Below are positions 2,906 through 62,435 of a DNA stretch of 64,000 nt, piece by piece. The position numbers and the translations under genes were made by a program. Positions within the stretch are counted from its first letter, which is position 1. The number at the start of each line of letters is the position of its first letter. The notes beneath the pieces are model-generated. The model saw nothing but the letters and a program-made list of their open reading frames with translations. It had not been told where the DNA came from and searched no databases. Source of the DNA: Parachlamydiales bacterium (GTDB lineage: Bacteria > Chlamydiota > Chlamydiia > Chlamydiales > Rhabdochlamydiaceae); the NCBI GenBank assembly GCA_963705295.1, contig OY970065.1, positions 1,280,001 to 1,344,000 of the forward strand, in the 5' to 3' direction.

Positions 2906-5068
2906 ATGACAATGCCCCCAATAGAATTAAATAAATTAAACCGTTTTAATATAGAGCACCCCACACTCAGCAGAAGCAAACTTGTTCCTTTGGTCAATGC
3001 ACTCCTCAAAACGTGGTGTAGTCCAGAAGCACACGAGAGATTTACCCGAATATTCGATGCTTGTCAATTGGGGAACGATGGTTTCTCTTGGTGTGATCCA
3101 GCCCGTTTACTTTCTGTACTGGTGTCTCCCATCGATCGATTCCGCAGTTCGAACACATTAGAAGACAAAATCTTTCTCCGAACATCTGATCCTGACTCTT
3201 TATTATTGGTGGCATCTAGAAAAAACCTACCATTAGAGTTATCATCTTCGGAAAAAGAGGTTATTTTGGAAGGGGTAAGCGAAGAGGCCCTTTTCCAAAT
3301 CGTCAAGTACTTGGAGACGGGGGTTGCCGAATTTATTAACCCGAGGGGTCAAAAGGTGACAAGATGCGCTGCGAGGCAAAGCCAGATTGATTCTCGCGAG
3401 GATTACATTCTTGAATACGAAGGATTCCGAGCGAGAATCGATATGGCAAAGCCGCAGCAAGCAGGTTGTCACCTTTTGACCCCTCGGGTTAATAACAGTG
3501 AAACAATTGGTGAAGTCTTCCAGTTTGCTCAAAAATACAAGAATTCAGATTTAATGGATCTCTCTTCTAAGTGTATATTGTTTGACCTTAATAAGACCAT
3601 TAGAACTGCGTTCGAAATACATTCGAATAAAGGTATTGTTAAAATAGCTGTCGAAACAATTTTAGATGACCCTGCTAAAATTGGTGAGTGGAGAGCTTGG
3701 GTGCAAGATCACCCTCCTCCAGCTGGTTATCTTGCTCTTCAGGAATCTTTATGTGTTGCTATGGAGCGATTTCATCTGTGTAGAGCTCATGCCAATCCTG
3801 TCATCATCAGAACATCTCATTCTTTATTATTGGTGGCTTCTCGAGACAATTTAAAAACTTCAGAAAAGGAGATTATTTTTGGAGGGATCAGCGATGAGTC
3901 CCTGATCAAACTCTCTGAGTTTTTTGAAACCGGCAACGTCGAAATCTCTGATGAAGATATAGCTATCGAAATCTATCCAGTGGCTCAAAAATATCAGATG
4001 TCAAGCTTGATGAAACTCTGCTACCCCCAGTTGCTACGGACGGTAACCTCTTTAAATAGAGCGCTTCGTTATTATTCCGAAGGGGAGGAACCATTATCTC
4101 AGGCTAGGAAGCGATTTGACCAATGTCAAACTTTGCTTCAATTAAATCCTGTCGTAATTCAGTCGGCGGACCCGGACTCTGTCCCGTATGTTCTTTCATC
4201 CGGAGAAAAACTTAAGCACCGGAGCCTTGCGTTGAAGGAAATCTGTGAAAGCACGCTGTTTAAAGGCAAAGCCATTTTTGAGGGTTTCAGTTCAGAAGCA
4301 TTGTATGAGATTGCTCAAGCTTTAGAAACCGGCGGATGTGCATTCTTCGGAGAAAACATACTCCCTGCCTATCTTTTTTTCTCAATGTTTGGATGTGAGG
4401 AGCTGAGAAAAGAATGTTTGGAAACAATCCTTGAAAATTTAAATTCCTCTCTTTTAGCTGTTCTAGAGTTTGCACTAGACATTGAAGATAAAGTACTTCT
4501 TACAGCACTGATGACAGAGGCGGCAAATTCCATTTATGGTCTACGGGGCTGCTCGGATGAAGTCTCAGATATTCTTTACCTGATTAGAAAAATATACAAT
4601 TGCAAAGCCGTAAAACTGGAGAGGGACGGTTTTGACGTTCATCTGCGCCTGAACACTCAAGATAAATCGGAGGGTCTTTTCTATCTGATAAAGTGTTTAT
4701 TTAGAGAGAGGCTGCATCTGACTAAAATGACTTTTGAGTGCAACAGTCCAGATGAAGCCCGTGAACACGGTAAGGTTTTGAGGGAATTTGGAAAAACGTC
4801 GAACTTGCGCGCGTTAAATCTCGTCACCAATAACCAACAAGTTCTCGAATTTATAATCTCAAGCCTCCCTGGCACTAACATTTCTCACTTCTCGGTCAAA
4901 ATGGAGGGAAGTATTACGAATTTAAATAATTTAGAAGATGCCTCTACTCTCACGCACTTAACCCTTAGAGCGACCGAGGTATTAAAAAATCAAATTTTAG
5001 AGAAAATAAATGCAGAGCGGATGCTCAGGAGAAAACCGGCACTTGTCGTAGAGTTCATTCCACTGTAA
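2906..5068 (+). CDS. Protein with about 3 BTB/POZ-like repeats and an LRR-like C-terminus, carrying a 53-aa in-frame mobile-element insert
   Basis: Repeated EG(V/I/F)SxE(A/S)L...(L/F)ETG...AQKY...L blocks resemble the BTB fold. ATG at 2906 is preferred over TTG at 2876. Confidence 0.7.
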   Translation: MTMPPIELNKLNRFNIEHPTLSRSKLVPLVNALLKTWCSPEAHERFTRIFDACQLGNDGFSWCDPARLLSVLVSPIDRFRSSNTLEDKIFLRTSDPDSLLLVASRKNLPLELSSSEKEVILEGVSEEALFQIVKYLETGVAEFINPRGQKVTRCAARQSQIDSREDYILEYEGFRARIDMAKPQQAGCHLLTPRVNNSETIGEVFQFAQKYKNSDLMDLSSKCILFDLNKTIRTAFEIHSNKGIVKIAVETILDDPAKIGEWRAWVQDHPPPAGYLALQESLCVAMERFHLCRAHANPVIIRTSHSLLLVASRDNLKTSEKEIIFGGISDESLIKLSEFFETGNVEISDEDIAIEIYPVAQKYQMSSLMKLCYPQLLRTVTSLNRALRYYSEGEEPLSQARKRFDQCQTLLQLNPVVIQSADPDSVPYVLSSGEKLKHRSLALKEICESTLFKGKAIFEGFSSEALYEIAQALETGGCAFFGENILPAYLFFSMFGCEELRKECLETILENLNSSLLAVLEFALDIEDKVLLTALMTEAANSIYGLRGCSDEVSDILYLIRKIYNCKAVKLERDGFDVHLRLNTQDKSEGLFYLIKCLFRERLHLTKMTFECNSPDEAREHGKVLREFGKTSNLRALNLVTNNQQVLEFIISSLPGTNISHFSVKMEGSITNLNNLEDASTLTHLTLRATEVLKNQILEKINAERMLRRKPALVVEFIPL
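3334..3494 (+). mobile_element. Palindromic MITE-like element, copy A (core I), in frame inside a CDS
   Basis: Perfect 29-bp inverted arms TATTAACCCGAGGGGTCAAAAGGTGACAA / TTGTCACCTTTTGACCCCTCGGGTTAATA. Length 161 bp with TA at both ends. Near-identical to 28854..29014. Confidence 0.93.
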
Positions 5069-6881
5069 CGGATTTTGCGAGATTGCGGGGATGGTCGATA
5101 TCTCTTCCGAGTTCTAGGGCGATGTAATAGGCGAAGAGCTGAGTCGCGACGGAAAAGGGGATAGGGGCCAGGGCGTCGGAACATGAAGGGAGATAGATCA
5201 CGTCGTCTGCGAGGTTGTCGATATCTGGGGTATCTTCGAAGGCGAAGGCTAGGATGGGTGCGCCGCGGGATTTGACTTCGGTGAGATTGCTGATCATTTT
5301 ATCGAGAGTGCGCCGGTTACCACAAAGACCGATGATGGGGAGATTTTCATCGACCAGAGCAATCGGACCATGTTTCATTTCACCTGCTGCACATCCTGTG
5401 GCTTCCCGATACGCAATTTCTTTGAGTTTGAGAGCCGCTTCTAGGCTGCTGGGATGCATGAAATGCCTGCCGAGGAAAAAGAAGTGGGAATATTTGCTGT
5501 ACCGGGCCGCAACTTCAGCGATGGCTTCATGTTGAGATAAGACTTTCTCAACGAGGGATGGAAGTAGGCGGATGTCATTTAAAAGTTCCTGTCCTTCTTC
5601 CTTGCTAAGATGCCGCTGCCGTCCCATCAATACTGCGAAAAGTGAAAGAACGGTGATTTGACTGGTGAACGCCTTCGTTGAACAGACGCTGATCTCAGGA
5701 CCAGCCCGTAGAAAAATCGTCGTATCGGCTTCCCGCGTCAGAGTCGAATTTTTGACATTGCAAATCGCAATGACCTGGGCCCCTTTTTGCTTCACTTCAC
5801 GGACTGCCGCTATCGTATCGAGGGTTTCTCCGGATTGGCTGATGGCTATGACAAGGGTATTTTCAGAGATAATCGGATTTTTGTACCGGAACTCGGAAGC
5901 GATTTCGACTTGGCACGGAATCCGGGCTTTTTCCTCGAGATGAAATGCTGCAATACACCCCGCATGCCATGAGGTGCCGCAAGCTAAAATCAAGATTCTT
6001 TTGACGGCTTGCAAATCTTGAGGGGTGAGATGAAAATTTTCGAACTCGACCGTGCCAAAATCTTCGATAAAACGGTTATGCAACGCTTGCTGGAGGGTTT
6101 GGGGTTGCTCGAAGATCTCTTTGAGCATGTAATGCTCAAAAGCCCCTTTCGAGCGGCTATAATTTTCAAGTCCCAGTTTTTCAGGAATTTTGGCGATAGG
6201 GGAGCTGCTCGGATCCAAAATTTCGATTTTATCGGCTTGGATCACCGCGAGTTCATCGCTCCTGAGAAACAAAACATCGAGATCGGAGCTATGGAACGCG
6301 TTTGGATCGGAGGAAATAAACGCCTCTCCAGATTTAAAACCAATCGCGAGAGGATTTTCCCTGGCTGCCGCAATGATCGTATCGGGATGATCTTGATGAA
6401 CGACGGCAATTCCCCAAAATCCTTGCAGAAGCGAAAGGGCTTTTTGAGTTGCTGCCACCAAGTCGCCGGTATAAAAATGGGCGATGAGCTGCGCAATCAC
6501 CTCGGTGTCGGTGTCCGATTGGAATTTTCGACCATTGCCCTGGAGCATTTCTCTTAAAGGTCTGTGATTCTCGATGATCCCGTTGTGAACAACGGCGACG
6601 TGCAATTTCTCATCAAAATGGGGATGGGCATTTTCCTTTGTTGCTTTTCCATGCGTCGCCCACCGTGTGTGAGCGATAGCAAGCGAAAGGGGAGCGGGGC
6701 TACTTTGCCACGCTTGCTCGAGCTGACGGATTTTCCCCGTCTCTTTCCAAAAACGGAGCTGCCCTTCCGCAACTCCGACGAGTCCTGCAGAATCGTAACC
6801 CCGATATTCGAGCTTTTTAAGCCCTTCCAAACAAATGAGAGCTGAATCGTTCGGGCCAATATATCCGAATATGCCGCACAT
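5055..6881 (-). CDS. glmS: Glutamine--fructose-6-phosphate aminotransferase (isomerizing)
   Basis: N-terminal MCGIFGY, LEYRGYDSAG, HTRWATHG and C-terminal PRNLAKSVTVE. Confidence 0.98.
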   Translation of the reverse strand: MCGIFGYIGPNDSALICLEGLKKLEYRGYDSAGLVGVAEGQLRFWKETGKIRQLEQAWQSSPAPLSLAIAHTRWATHGKATKENAHPHFDEKLHVAVVHNGIIENHRPLREMLQGNGRKFQSDTDTEVIAQLIAHFYTGDLVAATQKALSLLQGFWGIAVVHQDHPDTIIAAARENPLAIGFKSGEAFISSDPNAFHSSDLDVLFLRSDELAVIQADKIEILDPSSSPIAKIPEKLGLENYSRSKGAFEHYMLKEIFEQPQTLQQALHNRFIEDFGTVEFENFHLTPQDLQAVKRILILACGTSWHAGCIAAFHLEEKARIPCQVEIASEFRYKNPIISENTLVIAISQSGETLDTIAAVREVKQKGAQVIAICNVKNSTLTREADTTIFLRAGPEISVCSTKAFTSQITVLSLFAVLMGRQRHLSKEEGQELLNDIRLLPSLVEKVLSQHEAIAEVAARYSKYSHFFFLGRHFMHPSSLEAALKLKEIAYREATGCAAGEMKHGPIALVDENLPIIGLCGNRRTLDKMISNLTEVKSRGAPILAFAFEDTPDIDNLADDVIYLPSCSDALAPIPFSVATQLFAYYIALELGRDIDHPRNLAKSVTVE

Positions 6882-6898
6882 ATGTTATTAAGATAGAT

Positions 6899-7393: not shown

Positions 7394-7454
7394 TCCTCAA
7401 TAACTTCCATTTCAGTTTAAATTAATATTAATATATGATAAAATATTCATTAAT

Positions 7455-14219: not shown

Positions 14220-14341
14220 AAAGCCTCCATATAGGGAATCCCATAAGTATAAGAGATTTAAAATAATTTTCAAGAAACATTTTTCTTTACATGATTCGTT
14301 TTTTCTTTTATATAAAATTATTTAAAAAAAAAGGATACCGC

Positions 14342-17300
14342 ATGCAAAATTTTAGGACTCTTGGACTTCTTACATCCTCTGTTGTGCTCTTTTCTGCTGT
14401 GAATGTCTCTTCAGATGGCGAATTACAGAATGCGATTATCTCTGCGAATTTGGGTGGAGATAATACGATAAATTTTGTCAATAACATCACGCTCACTTCT
14501 CCAGGAATAGGTGCTCCTAATTTACGTCCTATCAATGCGAACTACGACTTTACACCGGGTAATTATCCTATCACCATTAATGGAAACAACTTTACTTTAA
14601 ATGGGGCGAATGCTTTTCGAGGTTTTTTTGTTCGCGGAGGAACTGTCTCCATCAATAATCTCAATTTTGGCAACACTTTGAGTGAAGGTGGTCAAGGTGG
14701 AGATACAGGCGGTGGAGGTGGTTCTGGGATTGGTGGATCGGTGATTGTTGGAACCGGAACCAACGTCACTTTGGTAAACCCTACTTTTGTAAATTCTAAA
14801 GCTCAAGGTGGACATGGAGGCGCTCCAGGAACCGCCAATGTCACTCCACCACTCGCAGGTGGGGGAGGAGGTATGGCAGGATCTGGTGGTTTTGGAGGAG
14901 GATTTTCCGGCGGCGGCGGCGGTGGTTTAGACTATACAGGAGGAAATAGTACGTCAAGCAACAACAGCGGCTCTGGAGCGGGAGGTGCCGGCGTGGGATT
15001 CAATGGTGGAGATGCTTCAGGAACAGACACACCTGGAAATGGAGGCAATAATTATGCTGGTGCTGGGGGCGGAGCTGGAGGTTCTACTTTCCTTGCCAAT
15101 GGTTCTCCTGGCTCCAATGGAGGTGGTGGAGGTGGAGGGCATGATACGCTTGGCGTGACTCCAGGAAATGGCGGTGCAGGTGGCGCAGGAGGAATTGGCG
15201 GTGGAGGAGGGGGTGGCGGTGCTGTACTTCCAACGACCAGTGTCGGTGGCGCAGGAGGAGATTTTGGCGGCGGCGGCGGAGGAGGATTTCAAGGTAGTGT
15301 AGGAGGTGCCGGAGGCATTTTTGGAGGCGGCGGTTGTGGCGGAAATACCGATCCCGAAAGTTTTCCACAATTCAATGGAGGACAAGGTGGAAATGGAGGT
15401 TTTGGAGGCGGCGGCGGAGGTGGTGGTGGTGCTTTCGTCACAGTTCTTGGCCTTACACCGGGTGCGGGTGGAACAGGAGGTTTTGCAGGGGGCAATGGTG
15501 ATAGCGGCAGTCTTGTCGTAGGTAGTTTTGGACCCAATGGAGCTGGAGGTGGAGGTGCAGGCTTTGGAGGAGCTCTTTTTCTTCAAAATGGGGGAAATCT
15601 TACAATCCAAGGTGCGCCGAGTTTTTCTGGGAATTCTTCGGCAGGGGGACTGAGCGGTGGTGGGAATGCGACAAGTGGCTCAGGTTTGGGGCAAGACATC
15701 TTTATGATGTCATCGTCGCTGCTCACCTTCAATATTACGAATACAGTGACATTAGCTAATCCCATTCAGAGTGATCAAGGGGCAGGCGGAGGGAGCACGA
15801 CAACCGGTGGTTTGACTAAAAGCGGCACAGGGACACTCGATTTCGCAACATTTAATCTCGCTAATACGTACACCGGTACTACAACAATTAATGATGGCAT
15901 TTTGAAAATTGCCAGCGACAGTAATTTGGGAGTGGCGGCAAACCCTGTCGTTATGAACACGGGTATCGGGGTTTCTCCGACTCTCGAATTTGCAGGCAAT
16001 GTCATATCGGCTCGTTCGATCACGCTGACTGGTCTACAAGCTGCGACTCTACAAGCAGACGCATCAACGAATTCGATTTTTTCAGGGATCATCAGTGGTA
16101 CAGGTTCTTTGACGAAAACAGGAACTGGTGTTGTTACTTTTTCAGGAGTGAGTCCTAATACCTATACAGGGACGACAACTGTCAATGATGGTATCCTTAT
16201 TTTGAATAAAGCACCCAATAACTTTGCCATTGCTGGAAATGCGGTTATTAATGGAGGCTCGCTCGTTTATGCTTCGACAAATCAGATGCCCTCTACATCC
16301 ACTGTGACCATCAATGGTGGTGCTTTCGATTTGACAGGCAATCCTGTGACCTTGGGAACTTTGATCTACAATGGTGGAACATTAACTCAAAGCGGTGCCC
16401 TTCTAACTTTATGTAATCCGAGACATGCCCTAACCATGCGCGATACCGTGATAACGGGGGATATCCTCTTGAAGAGAACAGGAAAAGTTACTTTTGATGC
16501 GACCAACAACGGAACAGCTGTCATTGCAGGTAATGTCGATTTGAATGGGCATAATATCGAATTTGATATTGCAGACGGTACTGCCCCGTTTGATATGGTT
16601 ATCAGTGGCGTGATCAGTAATGGAGGTCTCAAAAAGAAGGGACCTGGAACTCTCTACTTAACAGGAGAAAATACCTATAGCCATGGCGCAAAAATCTTAA
16701 AAGGAACCTTGGTAGGAAATACCAACAGTCTCCAGCCCAATATCGTCGATAAAGCAACCCTGGTTTTCTATCAAGATTTTGATGGAACGTATCAAGGTAA
16801 AATCCGTGGCCCAGGCGAACTTATCAAGAATGGTCTTGGAACAGTCACACTTATTGGGAAAAATACCTATAATGGTGGAACGGTCATCAATGAAGGAGCC
16901 TTGAAAGGAAACACGAAATCACTCCAGCGAAACATTCTCGATAATGCCACCATCATCTTCGAACAAACATCTCAAGGGAACTTCCATGGAATCGTCTCTG
17001 GTACAGGAGCTTTGATTAAAACTGGCGAAGGAACTTTGGTGTTCACAAAAAAACAGCAGTACACAGGGCAAACATTCATTGAACAAGGGAAATTAAGAGC
17101 TAATGGGGGTGGAAAAATTGCCGGTGATATTGTCGATAATTCCGTTTTGATTTTCCAGCAAAACAACAATGCATCTTACTCTGGAAATATCAGTGGTAGT
17201 GGAAAAGTTATTAAGACTGGTGAAGGAACTCTAGCACTCAAAGGAACCAATAACTATACAGGTGGAACAAGGATCAAGCAAGGAGCTCTTAAGGGAAATA

Positions 17301-18988
17301 CCCAAAGTATCACAGGAAATATTGTCGATGACGCAACTTTGATTTTTGATCAAAAGGTTAATGCGAAGTTCGGGGGCAACATCAAAGGAACAGGCGAACT
17401 GATAAAAACAGGAAATGCGACTTTGACACTGACAGGGGATAACACCTACACCGGTGGAACGATTGTTAAACAAGGAAAGCTCAAAGGGAATATTCCCGAT
17501 ATGGGAGATAACATTGTCAATGAAGGGGTAGTGGTTCACGAAGGAAATGGTCACTTCAATGGCACAATGAAAGGAAAAGGAGAAGTTCATGTTACCGGAA
17601 GACTCGGAGGAAGTGGAACAACGACTTCTCTGACTGTCAAAAGAGGTGGACGAATTGCTCCTGGAAATAGCATCGGAACCTTAAAAGTCTCCCATGACTA
17701 TACTCAAGAGAAGAGAAGCACGTATGAACTTGAGGTCGGCAAAAAGAGCGACTTGATTCAGGTTTCTGGAAAATCTCATCTCAAGGGTGGAACTGTCGAT
17801 GTTGATATTATTGAAAGCGACTTCGCGATCAATAAACCGTACGTTATTTTAAAGGCTAAAAAAGGTCTTAAGGGGACGTTTGACAAAGCCCGTCTAGACC
17901 ATCCGTATTTGACACCCGTTTTGAGTTATGATGACCATCATACCTACATGACCCTCAAGAGTGATTTCGGGAAATTTGCTAAAAACTCGAACGAAGCCCA
18001 AGTTGCAGAGCAGCTTGATGGACACCCATCGAGTCACTTCGATTTTTCGCATTCTCTCAATAAACTCTCGGGCGAGCAATATACGAACTTAATCTATATC
18101 GCCCAGCAGTCGGATCAAAGATTCATCCAAAGGATCTACTATCCCTTAGCCCGACGTATTGGAAGCGAGTGCCAACCGATGGAAGGGAATAAAACCAAAA
18201 TCTGGACCGATGGTCAGTGGGGAAGAAGCCATCAACATAATGACGACCATGCCAAAGGGTATAAGTCGAATGATTGGAACTTCACTTTAGGGATACATCA
18301 GGAAATTGGAACCCAAGGTACCATCGGGATAGCAGGTGCCTATGAGCAAAACCATGTCGACTTTAAAGCAGGCGGAGTCGGTCACTGCCATACCATCCTC
18401 GGAGCACTGTATGGTGCTTACAATCCCGACCCGATTTACATCATCTCGAACCTGGTTGCTGGATATAGTCATGATAAAGTCAAAAGACCTACCCACTCCA
18501 AGAGAATTGCCGGATATCCGAAAATCAACCATGTCACGTTCTACACTGAAATCGGTGGAAACATCTTTACCGGTTGCGGCTCACTGCAACCGTTTGCAGG
18601 TCTAGAAGTGCAACATTATCATCGAAGTTCATTTGAAGAACATGGCAGACACGCTCTCAAAGTCAAGGATAGAAATGTCAACCCTCTGAATAGCCGATTG
18701 GGCCTTCATTTAGCAACTCTGGCTTGGTGCGAGTTTACCTTTGGAGCCGATGTCGCATGGCTCCACCGTTTCTACTTCCATAAGGACAAAATCCGTGCGA
18801 AGTTTAGAAAATTTGGACATGAATTTAACGTCGAGGGTGTCGATGAACACCACGATGCGTTCCAAGGATCTTTGAACTTTACAGCTGCGCTTCCAAAAAA
18901 TGTCGATCTTTTTGCTGAAGCCTCAGGCCAAGTATGGAGCCACTTTTACTCTTACACCTTCACCGGAGGGCTGTCTTTCAGCTGGTAG
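14342..18988 (+). CDS. Autotransporter with Gly-rich passenger, passenger-associated (PATR-like) repeats and C-terminal beta-barrel
   Basis: Signal-like N-terminus, poly-Gly region, repeated LxKxGxGTLxLxGxNTYxGGTxI, APGNSIGTL, and terminal FSW. Confidence 0.9.
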   Translation: MQNFRTLGLLTSSVVLFSAVNVSSDGELQNAIISANLGGDNTINFVNNITLTSPGIGAPNLRPINANYDFTPGNYPITINGNNFTLNGANAFRGFFVRGGTVSINNLNFGNTLSEGGQGGDTGGGGGSGIGGSVIVGTGTNVTLVNPTFVNSKAQGGHGGAPGTANVTPPLAGGGGGMAGSGGFGGGFSGGGGGGLDYTGGNSTSSNNSGSGAGGAGVGFNGGDASGTDTPGNGGNNYAGAGGGAGGSTFLANGSPGSNGGGGGGGHDTLGVTPGNGGAGGAGGIGGGGGGGGAVLPTTSVGGAGGDFGGGGGGGFQGSVGGAGGIFGGGGCGGNTDPESFPQFNGGQGGNGGFGGGGGGGGGAFVTVLGLTPGAGGTGGFAGGNGDSGSLVVGSFGPNGAGGGGAGFGGALFLQNGGNLTIQGAPSFSGNSSAGGLSGGGNATSGSGLGQDIFMMSSSLLTFNITNTVTLANPIQSDQGAGGGSTTTGGLTKSGTGTLDFATFNLANTYTGTTTINDGILKIASDSNLGVAANPVVMNTGIGVSPTLEFAGNVISARSITLTGLQAATLQADASTNSIFSGIISGTGSLTKTGTGVVTFSGVSPNTYTGTTTVNDGILILNKAPNNFAIAGNAVINGGSLVYASTNQMPSTSTVTINGGAFDLTGNPVTLGTLIYNGGTLTQSGALLTLCNPRHALTMRDTVITGDILLKRTGKVTFDATNNGTAVIAGNVDLNGHNIEFDIADGTAPFDMVISGVISNGGLKKKGPGTLYLTGENTYSHGAKILKGTLVGNTNSLQPNIVDKATLVFYQDFDGTYQGKIRGPGELIKNGLGTVTLIGKNTYNGGTVINEGALKGNTKSLQRNILDNATIIFEQTSQGNFHGIVSGTGALIKTGEGTLVFTKKQQYTGQTFIEQGKLRANGGGKIAGDIVDNSVLIFQQNNNASYSGNISGSGKVIKTGEGTLALKGTNNYTGGTRIKQGALKGNTQSITGNIVDDATLIFDQKVNAKFGGNIKGTGELIKTGNATLTLTGDNTYTGGTIVKQGKLKGNIPDMGDNIVNEGVVVHEGNGHFNGTMKGKGEVHVTGRLGGSGTTTSLTVKRGGRIAPGNSIGTLKVSHDYTQEKRSTYELEVGKKSDLIQVSGKSHLKGGTVDVDIIESDFAINKPYVILKAKKGLKGTFDKARLDHPYLTPVLSYDDHHTYMTLKSDFGKFAKNSNEAQVAEQLDGHPSSHFDFSHSLNKLSGEQYTNLIYIAQQSDQRFIQRIYYPLARRIGSECQPMEGNKTKIWTDGQWGRSHQHNDDHAKGYKSNDWNFTLGIHQEIGTQGTIGIAGAYEQNHVDFKAGGVGHCHTILGALYGAYNPDPIYIISNLVAGYSHDKVKRPTHSKRIAGYPKINHVTFYTEIGGNIFTGCGSLQPFAGLEVQHYHRSSFEEHGRHALKVKDRNVNPLNSRLGLHLATLAWCEFTFGADVAWLHRFYFHKDKIRAKFRKFGHEFNVEGVDEHHDAFQGSLNFTAALPKNVDLFAEASGQVWSHFYSYTFTGGLSFSW

Positions 18989-19020
18989 GAAAATAAATTT
19001 AAAAAAAAGGAAATACGAAT

Positions 19021-22000
19021 ATGCGAACCTTTAGAACTCTTGCACTTTTAACTTCTTCGGTTGTGTTATTTTCAGCCAATGTAGCGACAGATACCGATTT
19101 GCAAAATGCGATTATCAATGCAAATGCCGGATTAGATGAAACGATCAATTTTTTAAATAGCATCACTTTAACAGGTGCGATCGCTCCGAATTTAAGACCT
19201 GTCAATGTCGATCCTGGCTTCTCTCCGACATCGAATGCCATCACCATCAATGGGAATAACTTCTCATTGGGTGGTTCGAATACATTTAGAGGCTTTTTTG
19301 TCCGTGGGGGAACTGTCAACATCAATAACCTCAGCTTTAGTAGTAATTTAAGCCAAGGAGGAGTCGGCGGACAAGTTGGCGGTGGCGGCGGCGGTGGGAT
19401 TGGCGGAGCATTGATTGTTGGAACCGGAGCGACTGTAACAGTGGTAAATCCGTCTTTTGTGAATTCTAAGGCTCAAGGTGGTAATGGAGGCATTCCTGGA
19501 ACTGCTGGTAACAACGATCCATTGGCTGGCGGCGGTGGTGGTCTGGGCGGAGCTGGTGGTATTGGGGGATTCTTTGCGGGGGGTGGCGGTGGTGGTTTGG
19601 ATTTTCAGGGGGGCAACAATTCCATTCCTGGCGGTAATAGTTCTGGAGCTGGTGGAGGAGGTGTTGGTTCGATAGGAGGAAATTGTGTAGGCGATACTCC
19701 TGGTAATGGGGGTAATAATTATGCAGGTAGTGGAGGCGGAGCCGGCGGTGTTGCTTTCTTAGATAATGGATCACCTGGAGCCAATGGCGGAGGAGGTGGC
19801 GGGGGTCATGATAGTGATGGCCTCACTGGACCTGGTGGAGCGGGTGGTGCTGGAGGCATCGGCGGCGGCGGTGGAGGTGGCGGAGCAACGTCTCAAAACC
19901 AGAGTTTTGGTGGCGCTGGAGGAGATTTTGGAGGGGGCGGTGGCGGTGGATTTCAAGGTAGCGCAGGAGGAGCCGGTGGCTTCAGTGGAGGTGGAGGATG
20001 TGGTGGTAATACTGAGCCTTTTACTCCACAACTCAATGCAGGACCGGGTGGTAATGGGGGTTTTGGTGGCGGCGGCGGCGGTGGTGGTGGGGGACCAACA
20101 GGTGTTGGCGTTTTTCCAGGAGCAGGAGGAGTAGGAGGATTTGGAGGAGGCAATGGGGACAACGGGAGTCTTGCAGGCGGCTTTGGACCCAATGGAGCCG
20201 GGGGTGGAGGTGCTGGTTTTGGAGGAGCGATTTTTCTTCAAAATAGTTCAAATCTCACCATTCAAGGAGCTCCAAGTTTTTCAGGAAATAGTGTTGTTGC
20301 AGGAGTGAGTGGGGGTGGGAATGCTACAAATGGCTCGGCCTTAGGAGCCGATATCTTTATGATGTCGTCGTCACTACTCACGTTTGACATTACAAATACT
20401 TTGACATTGGCAAATCCGATCGAGAGTGATCAAGGAGCCGGGGGAGGAAGTACGACGGCCGGGGGTTTGACGAAAAGTGGTCCAGGAACTCTCGATTTTG
20501 CAACGTATAATCTCGCAAATACCTATACGGGTACGACAACCATTAATGATGGCATTTTAAAAATTGCCAGCGATCAGAATTTGGGAGCGGTTGCAAACCC
20601 GATTGTTATGAATACAGGTGTTGGGGTATCTCCGATTCTTCAAATTGCAGGGAATGTTGTAACGGCACGATCAACGACGGTCAATGGCACACAGACGGCA
20701 ACTTTTCAAATTCTTTCAGGTGCCTCTCTTATGGATTCTGGCCCTATATTTCTCAATGGAGCTAACTTGGCTGTAGATACAGCACTAGGGACATCTTCCA
20801 CTTTATCTGGAATCATCAGCGGAACCGGTTCTCTGACAAAACAAAACGGAGGTGTCCTGACACTTTCAGGGGCAAGTCCCAATATTTATACAGGTCTAAC
20901 AACGGTCAACGGCGGCACCCTTCTCTTGGATAAACCGGCAAATATCCAAGCAGTCGGAGGCGATACGGTGATCAATGGAGGCTTGCTTATTTGCGGAGCA
21001 TCGAATCAGCTCCCCTTCACATCAACCGTGACCCTCAATGGCGGTGCCTTTGACTTAAGTGGCAATCCAACCACCATCGGAACCCTGATCTATGATGGAG
21101 GAACCTTAGCTCAAGGTGGCGCTATTTTAAGTTTAAGCAGCCCTACAAATGCCTTGACAATGAGGAATACCGTGATCACGGGCGATATTAGTTTGACGCA
21201 CGGAGGAAGTGTTGTCTTTGATGCTACGAATAATGGAACGGCGCTCATTACGGGCGGTGTCAATTTGAATGGCTATAATGTCGATTTCGATATTGCCGAT
21301 GGGACGGCTCCGATCGATATGTTGATCAGCGGGGTGATTAGCAGCGGCGGTGTTCTCACAAAGACGGGTCGTGGAACCCTCTATTTGCTAGGACAAAATA
21401 CATACAGCGGTGGGACAAGGATCCTCGATGGTGTACTGCAGGGAAATACCAACAGTCTTCAAGGCAATATCGTCGATCATGCGACACTGATTTTTTATCA
21501 AGATTTTGATGGAACGTATAATGGTAACATTCGAGGATGGGGTCAACTTATCAAGAATGGCCTGGGAACAGTAACATTGGTGGGAAAAAACACCTATAGT
21601 GGTGGAACGATCATCAACTCAGGAGCCTTAGAAGGAAATACCCGATCTTTGCAGAAGAATATTCTGAATGATGCCACCATCATCTTCAACCAAACATCTC
21701 GTGGTGCCTTCAAAGGGGTTATCTCTGGCACTGGCGACTTGATCAAAATCGGTAAAGGAATGTTGGTGATCAGGAAGAAACAACACTACACAGGGCAGAC
21801 ATTCATTGAACAAGGCAAGCTGAGAGTCAATGGTGGTGGAAAAATTGCCGGAGATATTGTCGATAATTCAGTTTTGATTTTCCAGCAAAACAACAATGCT
21901 TCCTACTCAGGAAATATCAGCGGGGTTGGAAAAGTCATTAAAAGAGGTCAAGGAACTCTAGCACTCAAAGGAACCAATACCTATACATGTGGTACGAAGA

Positions 22001-23715
22001 TCATTGCAGGAGCCCTTAAGGGAAATACCCAAAGTATTACAGGGAATATTGTCGATAATGCGACGCTCATTTTTGATCAGAAGTTTAATGCTATTTTCAG
22101 CGGTAACATTAGCGGAAAGGGCGAACTGATAAAAACAGGAAATGCGACTTTGACACTGACAGGGGATAACACCTACACCGGTGGAACGATTGTTAAACAA
22201 GGAAAGCTCAAAGGGAATATTCCCGATATGGGAGATAACATTGTCAATGAAGGGATAGTGGTTCACGAAGGAAATGGTCACTTCAATGGCACAATGAAAG
22301 GAAAAGGAGAAGTTCATGTTACCGGAAGACTCGGAGGAAGTGGAACCACGACGTCTCTGACTGTCAAAAGAGGTGGACGAATTGCTCCTGGAAATAGCAT
22401 TGGAACCTTAAAAGTCTCCCATGACTATACTCAAGAGAAGGGAAGCACCTATGAACTTGAGGTCGGCAAAAAGAGCGACTTGATTCAGGTTTCTGGAAAA
22501 TCTCATCTCAAGGGTGGAACTGTCGATGTTGACATTATTGAAAGCGACTTCGCGATCAATAAACCGTACGTTATTTTAAAGGCTAAGAAAGGTCTCAAGG
22601 GGGCATTTGATAAAGCCCGTCTAGACCATCCGTATTTAACACCCGTTTTGAGTTATGATGACCATCATACCTACATGACACTCAAGAGTGATTTCGGAAA
22701 ATTTGCTAAAAACTCGAATGAAGCCCAAGTTGCAGAGCAGCTTGATGGACACCCATCGACACACTTCGATTTTTCGCATTCTCTCAATAAACTCTCGGGC
22801 GAGCAATATACGAACTTAATCTATATCGCTCAGCAGTCGGATCAAAGATTCATCCAAAGGATCTACTATCCCTTAGCCCGACGTATCGGAACCGAATGCC
22901 AACCAATAGAGGGGAATAAAACCAAAATCTGGACCGATGGTCAATGGGGAAGAAGCCATCAACATAATGACGACCATGCCAAAGGGTATAAGTCGAATGA
23001 TTGGAACTTCAGCTTAGGGATCCACCGTTATATCGGCACCCAAGGGACAATCGGAATAGCAGGTGCCTATGAGCAAAACCATGTCGACTTTAAAGCAGGC
23101 GGCGTCGGTCACTGCCATACCATTCTCGGAGCACTGTACGGCGCCTATAATCCCGACCCCATTTACATCATCTCGAACCTGGTTGCTGGATATAGTCATG
23201 ATAAAGTCAAAAGACCGATCCACTCCAAGAGAATTGCAGGATATCCGAAAATCAACCATGTCACGTTCTACACTGAAATCGGTGGAAACATCTTTACCGG
23301 TTGCGGCTCACTTCAACCATTTGCAGGTCTAGAAGTGCAACATTATCATCGAAGTTCATTTGAAGAACATGGCAGACACGCTCTCAAAGTCAAGGATAGA
23401 AATGTCAATCCTCTGAATAGCCGGTTGGGTCTTCACCTAGCAACTCTGGCTTGGTGTGAGTTTACCTTTGGAGCCGATGTTGCTTGGCTCCACCGTTTCT
23501 ACTTCCATAAGGACAAAATCCGCGCGAAGTTTAGAAAGTTTGGACATGAATTTAACGTCGAGGGTGTCGATGAACACCACGATGCTTTCCAAGGATCTTT
23601 GAACTTTACAGCAGCGCTTCCGAAAAATGTCGATCTTTTTGCTGAAGCCTCAGGCCAAGTATGGAGCCACTTTTACTCTTACACCTTCACCGGAGGACTA
23701 TCTTTCAGCTGGTAA
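19021..23715 (+). CDS. Second autotransporter, tandem paralog
   Basis: Same architecture; the last ~1.6 kb is near-identical to the upstream copy. Confidence 0.9.
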   Translation: MRTFRTLALLTSSVVLFSANVATDTDLQNAIINANAGLDETINFLNSITLTGAIAPNLRPVNVDPGFSPTSNAITINGNNFSLGGSNTFRGFFVRGGTVNINNLSFSSNLSQGGVGGQVGGGGGGGIGGALIVGTGATVTVVNPSFVNSKAQGGNGGIPGTAGNNDPLAGGGGGLGGAGGIGGFFAGGGGGGLDFQGGNNSIPGGNSSGAGGGGVGSIGGNCVGDTPGNGGNNYAGSGGGAGGVAFLDNGSPGANGGGGGGGHDSDGLTGPGGAGGAGGIGGGGGGGGATSQNQSFGGAGGDFGGGGGGGFQGSAGGAGGFSGGGGCGGNTEPFTPQLNAGPGGNGGFGGGGGGGGGGPTGVGVFPGAGGVGGFGGGNGDNGSLAGGFGPNGAGGGGAGFGGAIFLQNSSNLTIQGAPSFSGNSVVAGVSGGGNATNGSALGADIFMMSSSLLTFDITNTLTLANPIESDQGAGGGSTTAGGLTKSGPGTLDFATYNLANTYTGTTTINDGILKIASDQNLGAVANPIVMNTGVGVSPILQIAGNVVTARSTTVNGTQTATFQILSGASLMDSGPIFLNGANLAVDTALGTSSTLSGIISGTGSLTKQNGGVLTLSGASPNIYTGLTTVNGGTLLLDKPANIQAVGGDTVINGGLLICGASNQLPFTSTVTLNGGAFDLSGNPTTIGTLIYDGGTLAQGGAILSLSSPTNALTMRNTVITGDISLTHGGSVVFDATNNGTALITGGVNLNGYNVDFDIADGTAPIDMLISGVISSGGVLTKTGRGTLYLLGQNTYSGGTRILDGVLQGNTNSLQGNIVDHATLIFYQDFDGTYNGNIRGWGQLIKNGLGTVTLVGKNTYSGGTIINSGALEGNTRSLQKNILNDATIIFNQTSRGAFKGVISGTGDLIKIGKGMLVIRKKQHYTGQTFIEQGKLRVNGGGKIAGDIVDNSVLIFQQNNNASYSGNISGVGKVIKRGQGTLALKGTNTYTCGTKIIAGALKGNTQSITGNIVDNATLIFDQKFNAIFSGNISGKGELIKTGNATLTLTGDNTYTGGTIVKQGKLKGNIPDMGDNIVNEGIVVHEGNGHFNGTMKGKGEVHVTGRLGGSGTTTSLTVKRGGRIAPGNSIGTLKVSHDYTQEKGSTYELEVGKKSDLIQVSGKSHLKGGTVDVDIIESDFAINKPYVILKAKKGLKGAFDKARLDHPYLTPVLSYDDHHTYMTLKSDFGKFAKNSNEAQVAEQLDGHPSTHFDFSHSLNKLSGEQYTNLIYIAQQSDQRFIQRIYYPLARRIGTECQPIEGNKTKIWTDGQWGRSHQHNDDHAKGYKSNDWNFSLGIHRYIGTQGTIGIAGAYEQNHVDFKAGGVGHCHTILGALYGAYNPDPIYIISNLVAGYSHDKVKRPIHSKRIAGYPKINHVTFYTEIGGNIFTGCGSLQPFAGLEVQHYHRSSFEEHGRHALKVKDRNVNPLNSRLGLHLATLAWCEFTFGADVAWLHRFYFHKDKIRAKFRKFGHEFNVEGVDEHHDAFQGSLNFTAALPKNVDLFAEASGQVWSHFYSYTFTGGLSFSW

Positions 23716-27815: not shown

Positions 27816-27869
27816 TTAAAACCCAAAAAGTTGCAAAAAAGGTGTCTTAAATCCCAAAAAGTTGCAAAA
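27816..27869. promoter_or_regulatory. Two 23-bp direct repeats upstream of the Fic gene, candidate operator
   Basis: TTAAA(A/T)CCCAAAAAGTTGCAAAA at 27816 and 27847; 22/23 identical, 31-bp period. Confidence 0.5.
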
Positions 27870-28542
27870 TCAAGTATATAGGAACCCTTTAATGCCCAAA
27901 TCGTTGCCCGAGGTGTTTATTTCATCTGCTGATATCGCATCGTACGTTTCAAAAGAAGTCAGAAAGGGTACTTTGCGTAAGTTAGGGAGCCGAATATATA
28001 CGACGAATTTAAAAGAATCTCCAGAAACTTTAATTAAACGACATGTTTGGTTTCTAGTGGGTTCTTTTTTTCCAGGTGCAGTCATTGTCGATCGAACAGC
28101 CATGGAACACCGCCCTGCTAAGGATGGCTCGGTGTTTATCGTTTCTAAGAAAAAAAGGTCTATTGTTTTACCGGGACTTCGTATCTATCCAAGAAAGGGA
28201 CAGGGTCCACTTTCAGATGACAAACCGTTTATGGACAATCTTTATTTGTCTAGTTTGCCCAGAACCTATCTTGAGAATTTATGTCAACGACGGACCCGCA
28301 AAGGGAAAATATCTAGAGCACTTTCGCGAGAAGAAATAGAAGAAAAATTGGAGACTCTTCTACAAACAATTGGTGAAGAAGCCCTTCAGAAATTAAGAAA
28401 GGATGCAAAAAAGATCTCTTCGCAATTAAAAATGAACAAAGAATGGAAGGTCTTAGATCATTTAATTGGTGCTTTATTGGGGACACGTGAAGCCAAAGAA
28501 ATCCAATCGCCTCTTTATTTGGCACGGCTTCAAGGGTATCCT

Positions 28543-28714
28543 TATTAACCCGACACGCAAAAAAGAGACAACCTGCTGGCTGCACCCCTGACAGATCGAT
28601 CCTCCTTCTCGGCCTAGCCTTCGGCTATGATCCTCGTCGGTCGGACCGCTGACGCTTCGATCTGACAGGGGTTCGCTTACGCATCTTGTCTCTTTTTTGC
28701 GTGTCGGGTTAATA
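28543..28714 (-). mobile_element. Palindromic MITE-like element, copy C (core II)
   Basis: Perfect 29-bp arms TATTAACCCGACACGCAAAAAAGAGACAA; 172 bp. Its reverse complement aligns with 62238..62421. Confidence 0.92.
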
Positions 28715-28853: not shown

Positions 28854-29014
28854 TATTAACCCGAGAGGTCAAAAGGTGACAAGATGCGCTGCGAGGCAAA
28901 GCCAGATTGATTCTCGCGAGGATTACATTCTTGAATACGAAGGATTCCGAGCGAGAATCGATATGGCGAAGCCGCAGCAAGCAGGTTGTCACCTTTTGAT
29001 CTCTCGGGTTAATA
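28854..29014 (+). mobile_element. Palindromic MITE-like element, copy B (core I)
   Basis: 161 bp with TA at both ends; differs from copy A at only 4 positions by my reading. Confidence 0.93.
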
Positions 29015-29429
29015 ATGCCAGATCTTGTCGAAGGAACTTTAAGAAAAGGTTTTAAATGGCTTCAAGCTTTAGAGGCTCCTTTTCACAAAGCTGTTTATAG
29101 CCTATTTTTAATTACAGAAGTGCATCCCTTTATCGATGGAAATGGAAGATGTGCTCGCCTCATGATGAATTCTGAACTTATAGAAGCTCATCAATCCCGC
29201 ATTATTATTCCAACGATTTTAAGAAATAATCAATTGGTTGCGCTGAAGGCTCTGTCTCAAAATACCCGAGCAGAACCCCTCATCAAGATTTTAGATTTTG
29301 CTCAACACTATACGTCTCTCATCGATTGGAGTAGCTATCAAAAAGCTCTTAAAATGCTCCAAAAGACAAATGCATTCGAAGATTCCAACACAGCTGAGTT
29401 AATGGGCATTCATTTGATTTTGCCAAATA

Positions 29430-30959
29430 TTAACCTCGTACGTCGAGGCCTTGGTCGATAAGGGGTTGTAGGGTATGACGGCCGAGCATCAGGTTTAGGT
29501 TGCAATCCCAGCATAAAAGCTGTTTCAGGTATTTAAGTTGAGCGAGAAAATCCCAAATTTGATTCGTTAGGCCAGAACAACAGTCAATAGCCAGATTTTC
29601 TAAGGGGAGATGTGTTAGGTGGGCAAAACCAGTTCCAGTTAATTTCCTACATTCTGTCAATTCGAGGGTTTTGAGTGGAAGGGTAGAGAGTGATTTTAAG
29701 TTCTCATCGGTCAACCCTTGATTACCATTGAGGCGTAGTGTTTCCAAATGGGTCAGTCGAGAAAGAAGGGAAAAACCGTAGCTGGTGATACTTTTATGAA
29801 AACTCAGATCAAGGCTTTTCAAGGTTGAAATGCTAGAGATAGAATCTAGGGCCATATCGGAAAGCTCATACGAGTTTTGCGCTAAACCCAGGGTTGTTAA
29901 ATGGGGAAGCCAAGTTAAATAAGCTAAAGCCTGATCACTACATCGATAGAAATTAAGGTCAAGGGTCTGTAATTTTCTTAGCACTGCAAGAGCTCGCAGG
30001 CCTTTATCACCTAGATTGTCGCATGAACTGAGGTCTAGAGTATGTAAAGAGGTCCCCTTTAGGAAAATCAGGGTAATTCCCGTGATACTTGTCCAGCGCA
30101 GCATGAGGCTTTGTAATTGTTTGAGTTTTCCAAGGAAGCGAATGCCCCAATCGGTTAAATTTCTACAATGACTCAAATCGAGTATTTCTAAAGTTTTAAT
30201 ATTTGAAATAAAAAATTCGATGTCTTTATCGGTGATGTTGGAAGAGGAAAGATTCAGTTTTTTTAGAGGAAGGCGAGTGAGCTCTAATAAGCCTGCACTT
30301 GTGAGGTCCTGATGGGCTAGATTGAGATTGATCGCCTTTAGACGGGGGAGTTTGGACAAGGCGCTTAAACCTACATTAGAAATAGGGGTAAAACTCAGAT
30401 CTAAATCGAGTTGTTCTAAACTTGAAATTTTGCCGATCTGTTCTAAGCCAGCATCCGTTATCCCTTTGGAAAAGGTTATTCTGAGGTTTGTTAACGCAGG
30501 CAGCTGGGTGAGAAATCCTAAAGCGGTATCTGTAAATTCAAAAGCACCGAGATGAAGATTTTGCAACCGGGGACAGGAAGAACAAATCGCTGCAATAACA
30601 TTTTCTGTAGGTATTTTCCCTTTGAATTCGCTGTTTAAAGTTAAACTCGTGAGATTGGGACAGTATTTTAAGATTTCTATGACCTCGTCATCATGGAGAT
30701 AATAGTGGGTTAAATCGAGGGTTGTTAAATTTCGACCTTGAACCCTCATATACTCAAAAAATTCCTTTAAACTATTAAACTCGGTTTTTGAAGGTACGAC
30801 TTGTCCGAGTATGATTATTGCTCTTTCTAAGCTTCTATTTACGGGTGGGACTTCGCTAAAAATGCCCCGCGCAATTGCTACGGCTGGGGAATCTCTTTTC
30901 TCAGTAATAACAGGTCTAATGTGCCCTAATAAAACATTAATTCTATCTAATGAACTCAT
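29430..30959 (-). CDS. Leucine-rich repeat protein (FBXL-like cysteine-containing LRRs)
   Basis: Repeated LxxLDLSxCxxLTDxGL units. Confidence 0.88.
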   Translation of the reverse strand: MSSLDRINVLLGHIRPVITEKRDSPAVAIARGIFSEVPPVNRSLERAIIILGQVVPSKTEFNSLKEFFEYMRVQGRNLTTLDLTHYYLHDDEVIEILKYCPNLTSLTLNSEFKGKIPTENVIAAICSSCPRLQNLHLGAFEFTDTALGFLTQLPALTNLRITFSKGITDAGLEQIGKISSLEQLDLDLSFTPISNVGLSALSKLPRLKAINLNLAHQDLTSAGLLELTRLPLKKLNLSSSNITDKDIEFFISNIKTLEILDLSHCRNLTDWGIRFLGKLKQLQSLMLRWTSITGITLIFLKGTSLHTLDLSSCDNLGDKGLRALAVLRKLQTLDLNFYRCSDQALAYLTWLPHLTTLGLAQNSYELSDMALDSISSISTLKSLDLSFHKSITSYGFSLLSRLTHLETLRLNGNQGLTDENLKSLSTLPLKTLELTECRKLTGTGFAHLTHLPLENLAIDCCSGLTNQIWDFLAQLKYLKQLLCWDCNLNLMLGRHTLQPLIDQGLDVRG

Positions 30960-55663: not shown

Positions 55664-55791
55664 TTCCTTCATTATTGTGTTCTCTTAAGCCAAAGAAATC
55701 TTGAGTACAAAGATGTCGTTCCTTTACTTTCGGATCTACAATCAGGGTCCAGCCACTTCCGCTTCCATTTCCATTTTCAAATTCTGCTCGC

Positions 55792-55954
55792 TATTAACCC
55801 GCTGGGCAAATAAGAGGCAAAGAGCGCTAGCGAGGCAAAGCCAGATTGATTCTCGCGAGGAATAACATTCTTGAATACGAAGGATTCCGAGCGAGAATCG
55901 ATATGGCGAAGCCGCAGCAAGCTATTTGTCTCTTATTTGCCTGGCGGGTTAATA
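55792..55954 (+). mobile_element. Palindromic MITE-like element, copy D (core I, different arms), intergenic
   Basis: 163 bp. Arms TATTAACCCGCTGGGCAAATAAGAGGCAA / TTGTCTCTTATTTGCCTGGCGGGTTAATA have three G-T pairs; core shared with copies A and B. Confidence 0.9.
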
Positions 55955-55972
55955 AACTCCACCAAAAGAAGA

Positions 55973-57868: not shown

Positions 57869-57920
57869 AGAGATATTATACCGGTTTTTACCGAATAATT
57901 CTATTGAAAGGTGACTTTTA

Positions 57921-58892: not shown

Positions 58893-59012
58893 CAAAAATG
58901 GTCGAGAAGAAGATCATTTACGCATATTGTGTTCATACCTATCGGTATACTGACTTATTCTTGCTAACTTCAAGCCATTCTGTTTTACTTTGGTGCAATA
59001 TTAAGGTTTTTT

Positions 59013-60038: not shown

Positions 60039-60068
60039 AGAAAAATAACCTCCCTCTTCACAACTGGA

Positions 60069-60512
60069 ATGGAACACCTTAAGAAAAAACGATATATAAA
60101 ATCATTTGTTATTACTTCTCTTCTTTGCTGGTTAATATTTGACAAGGAATTACAACAAGATTTATCAAAATTTTTTGCATATTTTTTCGAAAAAATATTT
60201 CCCGTTTTGATTAGTTGCTCTTTGGCTTATTTTCTGAATAGGAGCCCAAGCAGGAAGAATATAAAAAAACACATCGAATATCTAGGAATAGTCACACTCG
60301 GGATTCTATATATTTTTCTTGGCGGTATTTCTCTATCATTGATTATTACAATTTTATTATCAAAACTATTTCCGATTAGATTTGTATTTGTATGGCCAGT
60401 TTGGTGTTCGTTTTCATTTTTAATATTATTTTTTTCTTTCTTGTTGTTCTTTAAAAAAATGTCCCAAAAAAAAGAAAAGATTTTTACAGGAAAAATCACT
60501 GCAAAACATTAA
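60069..60512 (+). CDS. Hypothetical membrane protein, very AT-rich
   Basis: 147-aa ORF with about 4 hydrophobic segments. Confidence 0.5.
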   Translation: MEHLKKKRYIKSFVITSLLCWLIFDKELQQDLSKFFAYFFEKIFPVLISCSLAYFLNRSPSRKNIKKHIEYLGIVTLGILYIFLGGISLSLIITILLSKLFPIRFVFVWPVWCSFSFLILFFSFLLFFKKMSQKKEKIFTGKITAKH

Positions 60513-60537
60513 TTTTTTCATATAAGTCTTTTCAAAA

Positions 60538-60619
60538 CCGAGAAGGAGGATCGATCTGCCCCTATCTGACAGGGGGTTGCAGCCAGTAGGTTGTCACCTT
60601 TTTATGGCCCCCGTTAATA
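60538..60619 (+). mobile_element. Half copy F of the palindromic element (core II, right half)
   Basis: CCGAGAAGGAGGATCGATCTG...GCAGCCAGTAGG-TTGTCACCTTTTTATGGCCCCCGTTAATA matches the right half of copies C and E. Confidence 0.8.
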
Positions 60620-62435
60620 ACTGTGAGATGAGCTCTTGAATCAGCTTTACCTTTTCCAGTAAAGCTATGATTCTAGAATGAGTACCTTTTCTACGGGCTG
60701 TTTGCAGGGGTGTTTCTCCATACATATCGCGGATATCTATGCGCGCTCCGAATTGGAGGAGCAATTGAACACGGGCTTCATCCTCAGCAGGATTTAAATT
60801 TTTCACAGCAACGTGCAATGGGGTTCTACCTTTCTTGTCTGTAGCATTAGGATGGGCGCCTCTTCGTAAGAATAGGGCGGCATCCTCTATAGCGCCAGCG
60901 GTAATGGCGGTCATGAGGGGAGTACTTCCCCAACTGTTTTTGGCATGAAGATCCGATCCTTGATCTAAAAGGAATTCATTTAATTCGGGATTACATCTTA
61001 AAGCCGCTGAATGTAGCGGCGTCTTCCCATGATCATCAGTGGCTTTCCAAATCGGCACCCTTTTCTAAAAGAACCTGGGAGACTTTTTTACATCGAGATT
61101 TGTGTAAAGGGGTCTCGTGAAAAACATGACATCTTGCATCGACATTTGCACCGTTTTCTAAGAGCAACCTTGCGACATCTGAGCGACCATTGATAGAGGC
61201 AAAATGTAAAGGGGTTTCTCCACAAAAACCGACTCGATCTACAACGGCACCACTGTCGATAAGAATTCTACAGACGGCAAGGTGACCATTTTCTGCAGCT
61301 CTATGCAAAGCGGTCCGCGTAAGATTATCAACAGCATTGACTTTCGCCCCTTCTTCAAGAAGATACCGAACAACATCGGATTTTCCAGCAGCTGCAGCTT
61401 TATTCAGAAGCACACAACTTTTATCGATAGTTGGAACACATTCCATACAGATTTGCAGCATGGGGAAACACTCGGTCTTTATTGCTTTATCTATGATAGA
61501 ACAATGATGGAGATCAAGCTCATTTCCGCCGAGTCTTATTAAGAGCTCATATCTAGGGAACTCACTATGAAAGTCAACATAAGAAGGATGGCGACTCGTT
61601 AAACGTTTATTTAAAGTATATACATAATCGATCTGGGGAGCAGATTTTCGATCTCTTAAAATTTTACATAAAAATTGAGTAAATTCTATCGTGTAAGACT
61701 CGGGTAAATGGAATATTTCAGCTGCAGTTATAGATTTCAGGTTTCTTAAAGAAGTCTCCAAATCTGATCCCTCAGATAGATATATTTCAAGATGAGGTCT
61801 TAACAAGTGGAGGCTGTGATCTAAAGACTGCATATAGGCTTTTGCTTGAGCTGCATCTGTCCCTAGATACCCAAATTCACGAGCAAGTGTTAACCAGACA
61901 TCGGCGGTTAATCTCCGAGTCTCTGTACAAACCCGGGATACGTTTCCTAAATCACGAGTTCCAAGATGACCCAGCACCATCACCATTAACTCGTCTGGCA
62001 AGTGACTCACATGGCCTCTAGGTTGTCGCTGAATGAGTCGTTCAATTCTCTTGACATACTGGACACCCGCTCCTAAAGCAAAAGCTCTAAGCCCTTCCAG
62101 ACGATCCGGATATCGACTACCAATCCCAGGTTTATAGATGAGTCCATTTTCGAGGACCTGATTGATTTTGGCTAATGTAGTTGTAGCCTGAGGTTTTTTA
62201 CCGGTTTCTACGATTTGATAGGTTTTATCTGTAATTCTATTAGCCCGACGGGCAAACAGGTGACCCAAAGGGTGACAATATGCGTTAGCGAACTCCTGTC
62301 AGGTCGAAGCGTTAGCGGTCCGACCGACGAGGGCCATAGCCAAAGGCTAGGCCGAGGAGGAGGATCGATCTGGCAGGAGTGCAGCAAGCAGATTGTCACC
62401 TGTTTGCCCGTCGGGCTAATAATATTGAAAGTCAT
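60594..62435 (-). pseudogene. F-box plus ankyrin-repeat gene disrupted by element E at codon 5 and a +1 frameshift near 61045, ending in element F
   Basis: F-box HLPDELMVMVLGHLGTRDLGNVSRVC and TPLH ankyrin repeats in two frames. Deleting one A gives KGADLEATDDHGKTPLH. Confidence 0.85.
62238..62421 (+). mobile_element. Palindromic MITE-like element, copy E (core II, with 12 extra bp in the left arm)
   Basis: Arms TATTAGCCCGACGGGCAAACAGGTGAC[CCAAAGGGTGAC]AA / TTGTCACCTGTTTGCCCGTCGGGCTAATA; 184 bp = 172 + 12. Confidence 0.9.

Follow-up and report, generated by a model that had tools for sequence, protein, structure and literature searches.

The DNA studied here is a 64,000-nucleotide stretch of contig OY970065.1 from a Parachlamydiales bacterium (positions 1,280,001 to 1,344,000; G000:C1:1280001-1344000 of the source genome, G000), hereafter the window, which carries a dispersed family of short palindromic elements. 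These are almost certainly MITEs (miniature transposable elements with inverted repeats) of the IS630 type, and the hairpin in their middle is shared with MITEs that bear the ends of other transposase families. All six copies that a first-pass annotation had recognized from the letters alone—five full and one half—are present, with the consensus frame proposed there. Copy A (plus strand, 3334..3494) consists of a 157-bp element (3336-3492) between two TA dinucleotides and has a core of type 1. Its 27-bp left arm (3336..3362, plus strand) is an IS630-type terminal inverted repeat (TIR), with a design that matches the ends of the IS630 insertion sequences (ISs) in loci L047 and L048, and is complementary at 27/27 positions to the right arm (3466..3492, plus strand). 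The intervening core (3363..3465, plus strand) forms a strand-asymmetric hairpin with a GA bulge, an A-rich internal loop and a tandem GA/GA; it scores 85.7 bits with our core model R1 and has a folding z of -6.8, with equally good folds in 0/200 shuffles. Copy A lies, as a 53-residue in-frame insert, within a 730-aa open reading frame (ORF) with internal repeats (2876..5068, plus strand) that has no Pfam match.

The other copies differ in core, arm and setting. Copy C (28543..28714, minus strand; 168-bp element, core type 2) is found at the 3' end of an ORF at 27862-28548, and copy B (28854..29014, plus strand; 157-bp element, core type 1) interrupts a frame with a Fic domain (29015-29461) in its downstream part. 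Copy D (55792..55954, plus strand; 159-bp element, core type 1, with a different arm type) is intergenic, with a BACK-domain gene on one side and an LRR-NEL gene on the other. Only the 3' half of copy F (60538..60619, plus strand) is left, a type 2 core remnant with an arm of a further type, while copy E (62238..62421, plus strand; 180-bp element, core type 2) has a 12-bp duplication in its left arm and sits in the first codons of a minus-strand F-box/ankyrin gene. Two overlapping ORFs make up this gene (60594-62268), which has E where it starts and F where it ends; a paralogue at G000:C1:2063914-2065432 has another element copy nearby.

The first-pass annotation held that removal of the element plus one TA restores the protein frame at copies A, B, C and E. 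Counting open in-phase codons separately for each flank, we found this to be so at A, which is itself read through in frame (155 + 523 codons), and at B (75/148). At E the upstream flank has only 16 codons, but E lies a few codons past the apparent start of its gene and the paralogue has one TA where the two align, which supports the claim; the flanks of C are not clean (241/14 codons on the plus strand, 116/75 on the minus strand). An empty site was found for a further copy, located in an AbiEii-family gene: in its orthologue from genome G015, the matches to residues 4-216 and 270-337 adjoin one another, and the DNA anchors are separated by 200 bp in the filled gene and by 41 bp in the orthologue—a difference of 159 bp, that is, the 157-bp element plus one TA. 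Flanks and empty site together show the pattern of a TA duplication. An alternative boundary, with TTAA duplication and TATTAATA as target, is excluded both by the 159-bp difference and by TTAG/CTAA arm variants.

Across the genome, a strict-seed search returned 49 copies and an nhmmer profile search 80 loci, 70 of them with paired arms; the other 10 are partial or unpaired by script, three of which look full by eye and one of which has other ends. The paired-arm copies are 116-205 bp long, dispersed and devoid of a transposase gene, and comprise 39 with core type 1, 28 with type 2 and three others (core model R1 has 76 matches in this genome). TA is present on both sides in 60 of the 70, and the target context is TTAA in 30 of these 60, where 6.4 would be expected. 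The proposed density of about one copy per 10 kb shrinks to a third, one per 30.5 kb, genome-wide; the window belongs to the densest region, with 26/70 copies between 1.2 and 1.6 Mb. Three pairs of identical copies indicate that activity was probably recent, as had been suggested.

The first-pass view that the elements insert into genes is, in contrast, overstated: long in-phase flanks occur in at most 12/60 copies, compared with 70% for TA sites taken at random (n = 3000) and 66% for TTAA sites. Among the 12, one possibly represents a stop at the junction, another is copy C taken on the weaker of its two strands, and the dup0 and dup1 frame controls gave 6 and 8 of 60 against 12, a weak comparison in which the junction codon is ignored. 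Copies inside genes are thus the exception in this family. In-frame read-through was seen in 4/60 (copy A and the copies in AbiEii-family, TPR/NTPase and arylsulfotransferase genes), and no replication-linked orientation bias was found (29/70 leading). Locus L010 (G000:C1:726173-727409) holds three copies within 1.2 kb, two of them in one ankyrin gene, in an arrangement resembling the B/C pair, and a 334-bp copy at L079:239-572 has a second hairpin nested in its core; nested elements were also seen in L297. Additionally, the genome has 14 unpaired (solo) arms at E<0.05. Those at G000:C1:1948254, 1949518 and 1950625 lie inside a polyketide-synthase-like cluster, and further ones adjoin toxin-antitoxin and ATPase genes; no transposase ORF was seen beside the solo arms inspected, which may mark deletions or earlier capture events.

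The candidate partner transposons were found in related genomes. A DDE_3 search of 41 genomes led to L013, with element ends starting TATTAACC, and its protein matches 10/350 genomes of the phylum, five of which carry elements with the arm design of the family (L047, L048, L051, L053 and L054). L047 and L048 are ~1120 bp long, flanked by TA, and hold a single ORF of 348 and 349 aa, respectively, the products of which score above the NCBIfam IS630 cut-off; the DDE residues are kept in L047, and the best plasmid relatives are annotated as IS630. The ends of these ISs match the 27-bp arms at 20-24 positions (best 24/27). Of 140 arms, 120 carry the GACA(A) found on the inner side of the left IS end and none the GACTC/GACGC of the right end, although some arms fit the right end of L047 equally well in their outer part. 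The first-pass description of a non-autonomous, TA-duplicating, IS630-linked family is therefore upheld, its last part now by matching IS ends; the HUH-type source also considered there is without support. A further IS630-family element, L017:740-2152, has unusually long, apparently perfect terminal repeats.

Arms and core turned out to have separate histories. Core-1 copies (n = 38) have a mean core identity of 96.5%; for their arms it is 74.3% from copy to copy and 94.7% for the two arms of one copy. The arms fall into 18 sequence classes—one of them found on both core types—and both arms of a copy belong to the same class in 50/70 cases, where shuffling gives 9.1 and, in 2000 rounds, 19 at most. 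What had been described as a variable 14-nucleotide stretch is whole-arm replacement. Moreover, the self-complementarity of the copy at G000:686814 extends over the first 62 bp, against at most 28 in every other copy; the left half served as the template for the right half. Template-switch repair acts on quasi-palindromes, and would explain both this fold-back and the paired changes of the arms. Minimal derivatives made of an arm, an 18-nt core and an arm were observed at L081, L085, L106 and L285.

The core is conserved as a fold. An alignment of 32 cores has double changes in 12/17 pairs, and in core alignment A2, 96.2% of 364 cells are paired, compared with 21-40% in slid controls, and double changes number 33 against 7.3 after shuffling. 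The paired positions include 20 G-T against 3 A-C, the purine-rich strand folds better in 70/70 copies as RNA and in 66/70 as DNA, and the GA bulge and the tandem GA motif are kept in 66/70 and 69/70 copies, respectively; the inner part of the core is highly variable.

We further searched for this core beyond the source genome. As DNA, the element matches 8/40 relatives, and core model R1 finds matches in 32/149 genomes of the phylum, representing 19/88 genera, and in 0/26 of family f20. Around the R1 matches, TA accompanies ends of the TTAAC and TATAC types, GGGCYCGT ends come with 3-bp and CTCWGTAC ends with 9-bp repeats, and several rarer end types occur as well; 9-bp direct repeats flank seven IS4-ended MITEs. 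Among 44 metagenome loci read manually, 29 have the arm of this family, nine the TATAC type, three other ends and three unclear ends. The CTCTGTAC ends bound full ISs at L274 and L281, encoding 383- and 390-aa proteins above the IS4 cut-off, while a search for an autonomous partner of the GGGCYCGT ends found none. To avoid circularity, model R2 was trained only on 26 cores bearing the arm of this family; it matches 31/40 chosen loci (E<=6e-7, 38.8-89.9 bits), 12 of which have IS4-type ends, and misses L044, L068 and L297, with L068 likewise missed by R1. Over 89 distinct cores, IS4-ended and family cores share a mean identity of 63%, versus 67% within the family and 45% when shuffled, and the maximum between the two groups is 84%, reached by a locus chosen for its core pattern; a locus chosen for its ends reaches 80%. 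Neither R1 nor R2 matches the interior of six full-length IS loci, indicating that the interior does not derive from a parent IS; R2 has no match in 101 genomes of another phylum, nor does the core in the viral contigs and plasmids searched. Judged by these sequence comparisons, the middle is no remnant of these ISs but a conserved hairpin that also travels enclosed by IS4 ends and by other ends. It is a module of its own, common to MITEs that belong to different transposase families, which the first-pass annotation missed. At L062:953-1125 (G000:C1:1253553-1253725), different ends, TATACTG, enclose the family core, and the element lies in frame within a 603-aa ORF. In L044:1601-1731 (Anaerolineae), a similar arm surrounds a different interior that the core models do not match; this locus came from an arm-pattern contig scan that misses most arm types and gave three matches, two of them by chance.

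We give a probability of roughly 0.6 to the whole account that these results suggest to us, in which IS630-moved MITEs are built on a heritable hairpin that captures its ends. IS630 transposases bind the inverted repeats through helix-turn-helix (HTH) domains, excise the element and insert it at TA, and a clade of these Tc1/mariner-type enzymes would mobilize the MITEs in trans. The hairpin would be the heritable part of the element: when single-stranded, it may fold on the purine-rich strand only and bring both arms together, and fold-back (template-switch) copying would then overwrite one arm with a duplicate of the other. A newly captured transposon end would in this way be made into a matched pair, allowing the core to switch to another transposase. 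Selection would act on the one-strand fold, the fixed mismatches of which (GA bulge, A-rich loop, tandem GA/GA) may prevent a perfect double-stranded palindrome. Most copies in genes would be purged, and the survivors would be those between genes, at stop codons or in frame.

Several observations weigh against this account. TA is absent on one side in 10/70 copies, the fold-back copy is just 1/70, and no end-capture intermediate was seen. Template switching can create compensatory-looking changes, such that covariation is no proof of selection, and related sequences inflate the shuffle test on alignment A2. The first catalytic Asp is lost in L048; an arm-pattern search of the five IS-bearing genomes gave seven matches, all of them IS ends, and MITE and partner IS were never found in the same genome. 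Furthermore, no IS630 transposase was detected in the source genome (94.7% complete) with PF13358 or the L013 protein, PF13340 had no match there, tblastn with six IS630/IS4 proteins had none at E<=0.1, and no near-identical repeat >260 bp resembled an IS. An absent partner is common for MITEs, and lowers only the claim that the family is currently active.

A bolder version, which we hold tentatively and consider doubtful as it stands, would make the hairpin a selfish module independent of any transposase: it would recruit the ends of any incoming IS (several IS630 lineages, IS4 and others), duplicate the captured end by fold-back and outlive each transposase, with its one-strand bulges read by a host or mobile-element protein. 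If so, MITEs would be born by assembly and not by deletion.

It is rather unlikely, in our judgement, that the core is passive—an old palindromic cargo of an IS630 MITE without selected function, spread by descent and horizontal transfer, whose ends were exchanged through chance recombination or nested insertion, with fold-back repair mimicking covariation. Such a course is consistent with the fold-back copying observed, the minimal derivatives with an 18-nt core (L081, L085, L106, L285), the wide variation of the inner core and the lack of R2 matches in 101 genomes of the other phylum. Fold-back repair would, however, erase the non-Watson-Crick features that recur on the same strand (66 and 69 of 70) across end families, and neither the 20 G-T against 3 A-C pairs nor the 80-84% identity reached between IS4- and IS630-ended cores is readily accommodated.

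Selection on the core as RNA is less probable still. Here, a transcript-stabilizing or nuclease-targeted hairpin would render insertions tolerable, as proposed for Correia and ERIC elements, in line with the better RNA fold of the purine strand (70/70), the G-U excess, the presence of that strand as sense strand in 10/12 in-phase copies, and the 19/70 copies that lie <=6 nt from a stop codon in a crude gene set. The TTAA/TA target accounts for the stop-codon sites, though, G-T pairs are tolerated in single-stranded DNA too, and orientation between co-oriented genes is unbiased (18:15).

The two weakest alternatives have very little probability. A single-strand recombination substrate—a REP/REPIN (repetitive extragenic palindrome) moved by a RAYT/HUH enzyme, or an integron attC site—would suit the strand-specific bulges, which HUH- and integrase-type enzymes read, the solo arms next to patchy genes and the broken Y1 fragment at G000:631488, but it conflicts with TA and 9-bp duplications at ends matching DDE ISs, with copies dispersed in both orientations rather than in a cassette array, and with a sole Y1 match that is a 54-codon piece with a stop. 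Retention for an in-frame peptide, as in the Rickettsia palindromic elements (RPEs), is largely refuted as the main explanation: four in-frame read-throughs in the source genome, one more with other ends (L062), an in-frame copy in a gene of a relative (L007) and one stop-free frame per strand in copy A are outweighed by 48/60 copies without long in-phase flanks, only 26/60 lengths divisible by 3 and the absence of the insert in orthologues.

Other repeats and genes were recorded along the way. The Rfam matches of the window are four tRNAs only, and two tandem 1565-aa autotransporters (window 14291-23715) are 86% identical across 2.9 kb. The genome also has a second MITE family, 167 bp long, with TAGTGCCTG ends around an unrelated hairpin and four copies (G000:C1:560943, 1094675, 1278167 and 1492848), and REP-like doublets of ATCCTG/CAGGAT units occur at G000:C1:107037, 118369, 498451, 512432, 747848, 1810445, 1828913 and 2115324. 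Locus L058 (G000:C1:631488-631646) holds a broken IS200-type Y1 transposase fragment, and no intact RAYT gene flanked by repeats was found; three tyrosine recombinases were. Near a half copy, two adjoining ORFs (G000:C1:1792665-1793696) resemble, by eye, what we take to be a split IS110-type transposase.

The usual picture of a MITE as a hollowed-out transposon is at odds with a core that is kept while its ends are swapped, even for those of an unrelated transposon family. As to the origin and folding of bacterial MITE interiors, reviews describe MITEs as IS deletion products (PMC11602168) and state that the cores of different MITEs are dissimilar (PMC3184786). One core tied to two unrelated transposase families by direct end matches, together with intact candidate enzymes, makes the question testable. 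In addition, RPE-like inserts that lie in frame in genes of an intracellular bacterium gain a concrete source in IS630 ends around a stop-free hairpin, and covarying hairpins of this kind could be mistaken for regulatory RNAs.

The element has no Rfam match, in keeping with the first-pass impression of an undescribed family, and the literature consulted gave no account of it or of a MITE core shared by IS630 and IS4, although subscription papers, ISfinder and the MITE files of PMC11602168 could hold the family. Its closest counterparts are RUP of Streptococcus pneumoniae (IS630-Spn1), ERIC (MITEEc1, IS630) and Correia, which, in the available text of PMC2229807 and PMC11602168, are likewise <200 bp long, with TIRs, TA at the ends and a long stem-loop, and are mobilized in trans by an IS630 transposase; unlike these, the present family has 27-bp arms in ~18 classes on near-identical cores, and a core common to IS4-ended MITEs. 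Cross-mobilization, as presented in that part of PMC11602168, concerns the same TIR around different interiors, and a shared core with differing ends is the reverse case. According to PMC2170065, enzymes of the IS630 family use two HTH motifs to bind the repeats and generate a TA duplication, as ISY100 does; our family shares the TA duplication of ISY100/IS630/Tc1/mariner elements and a partner transposase with HTH and DDE_3, but it encodes nothing and its interior is unmatched in full ISs. Compared by description with the passages of PMC10969869 available, Rickettsia RPEs are also palindromes of ~150 bp lying in frame in unrelated genes of an intracellular bacterium; nearly half of them are in frame, against 4/60 here, where the mobilizing family is identified. 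QMITE2 of Coxiella burnetii, again compared by description, is a MITE of 150-190 bp with a palindromic stem that also occurs without full ends in other bacteria, but it differs in its 7-11-bp repeats and GTAG REP core, and end swapping is not described in the accessible text (PMC5896051). Small, gene-less elements moved by IS630-type transposases are a familiar form of selfish DNA; what sets the present family apart is a folded middle that stays while its ends are swapped.

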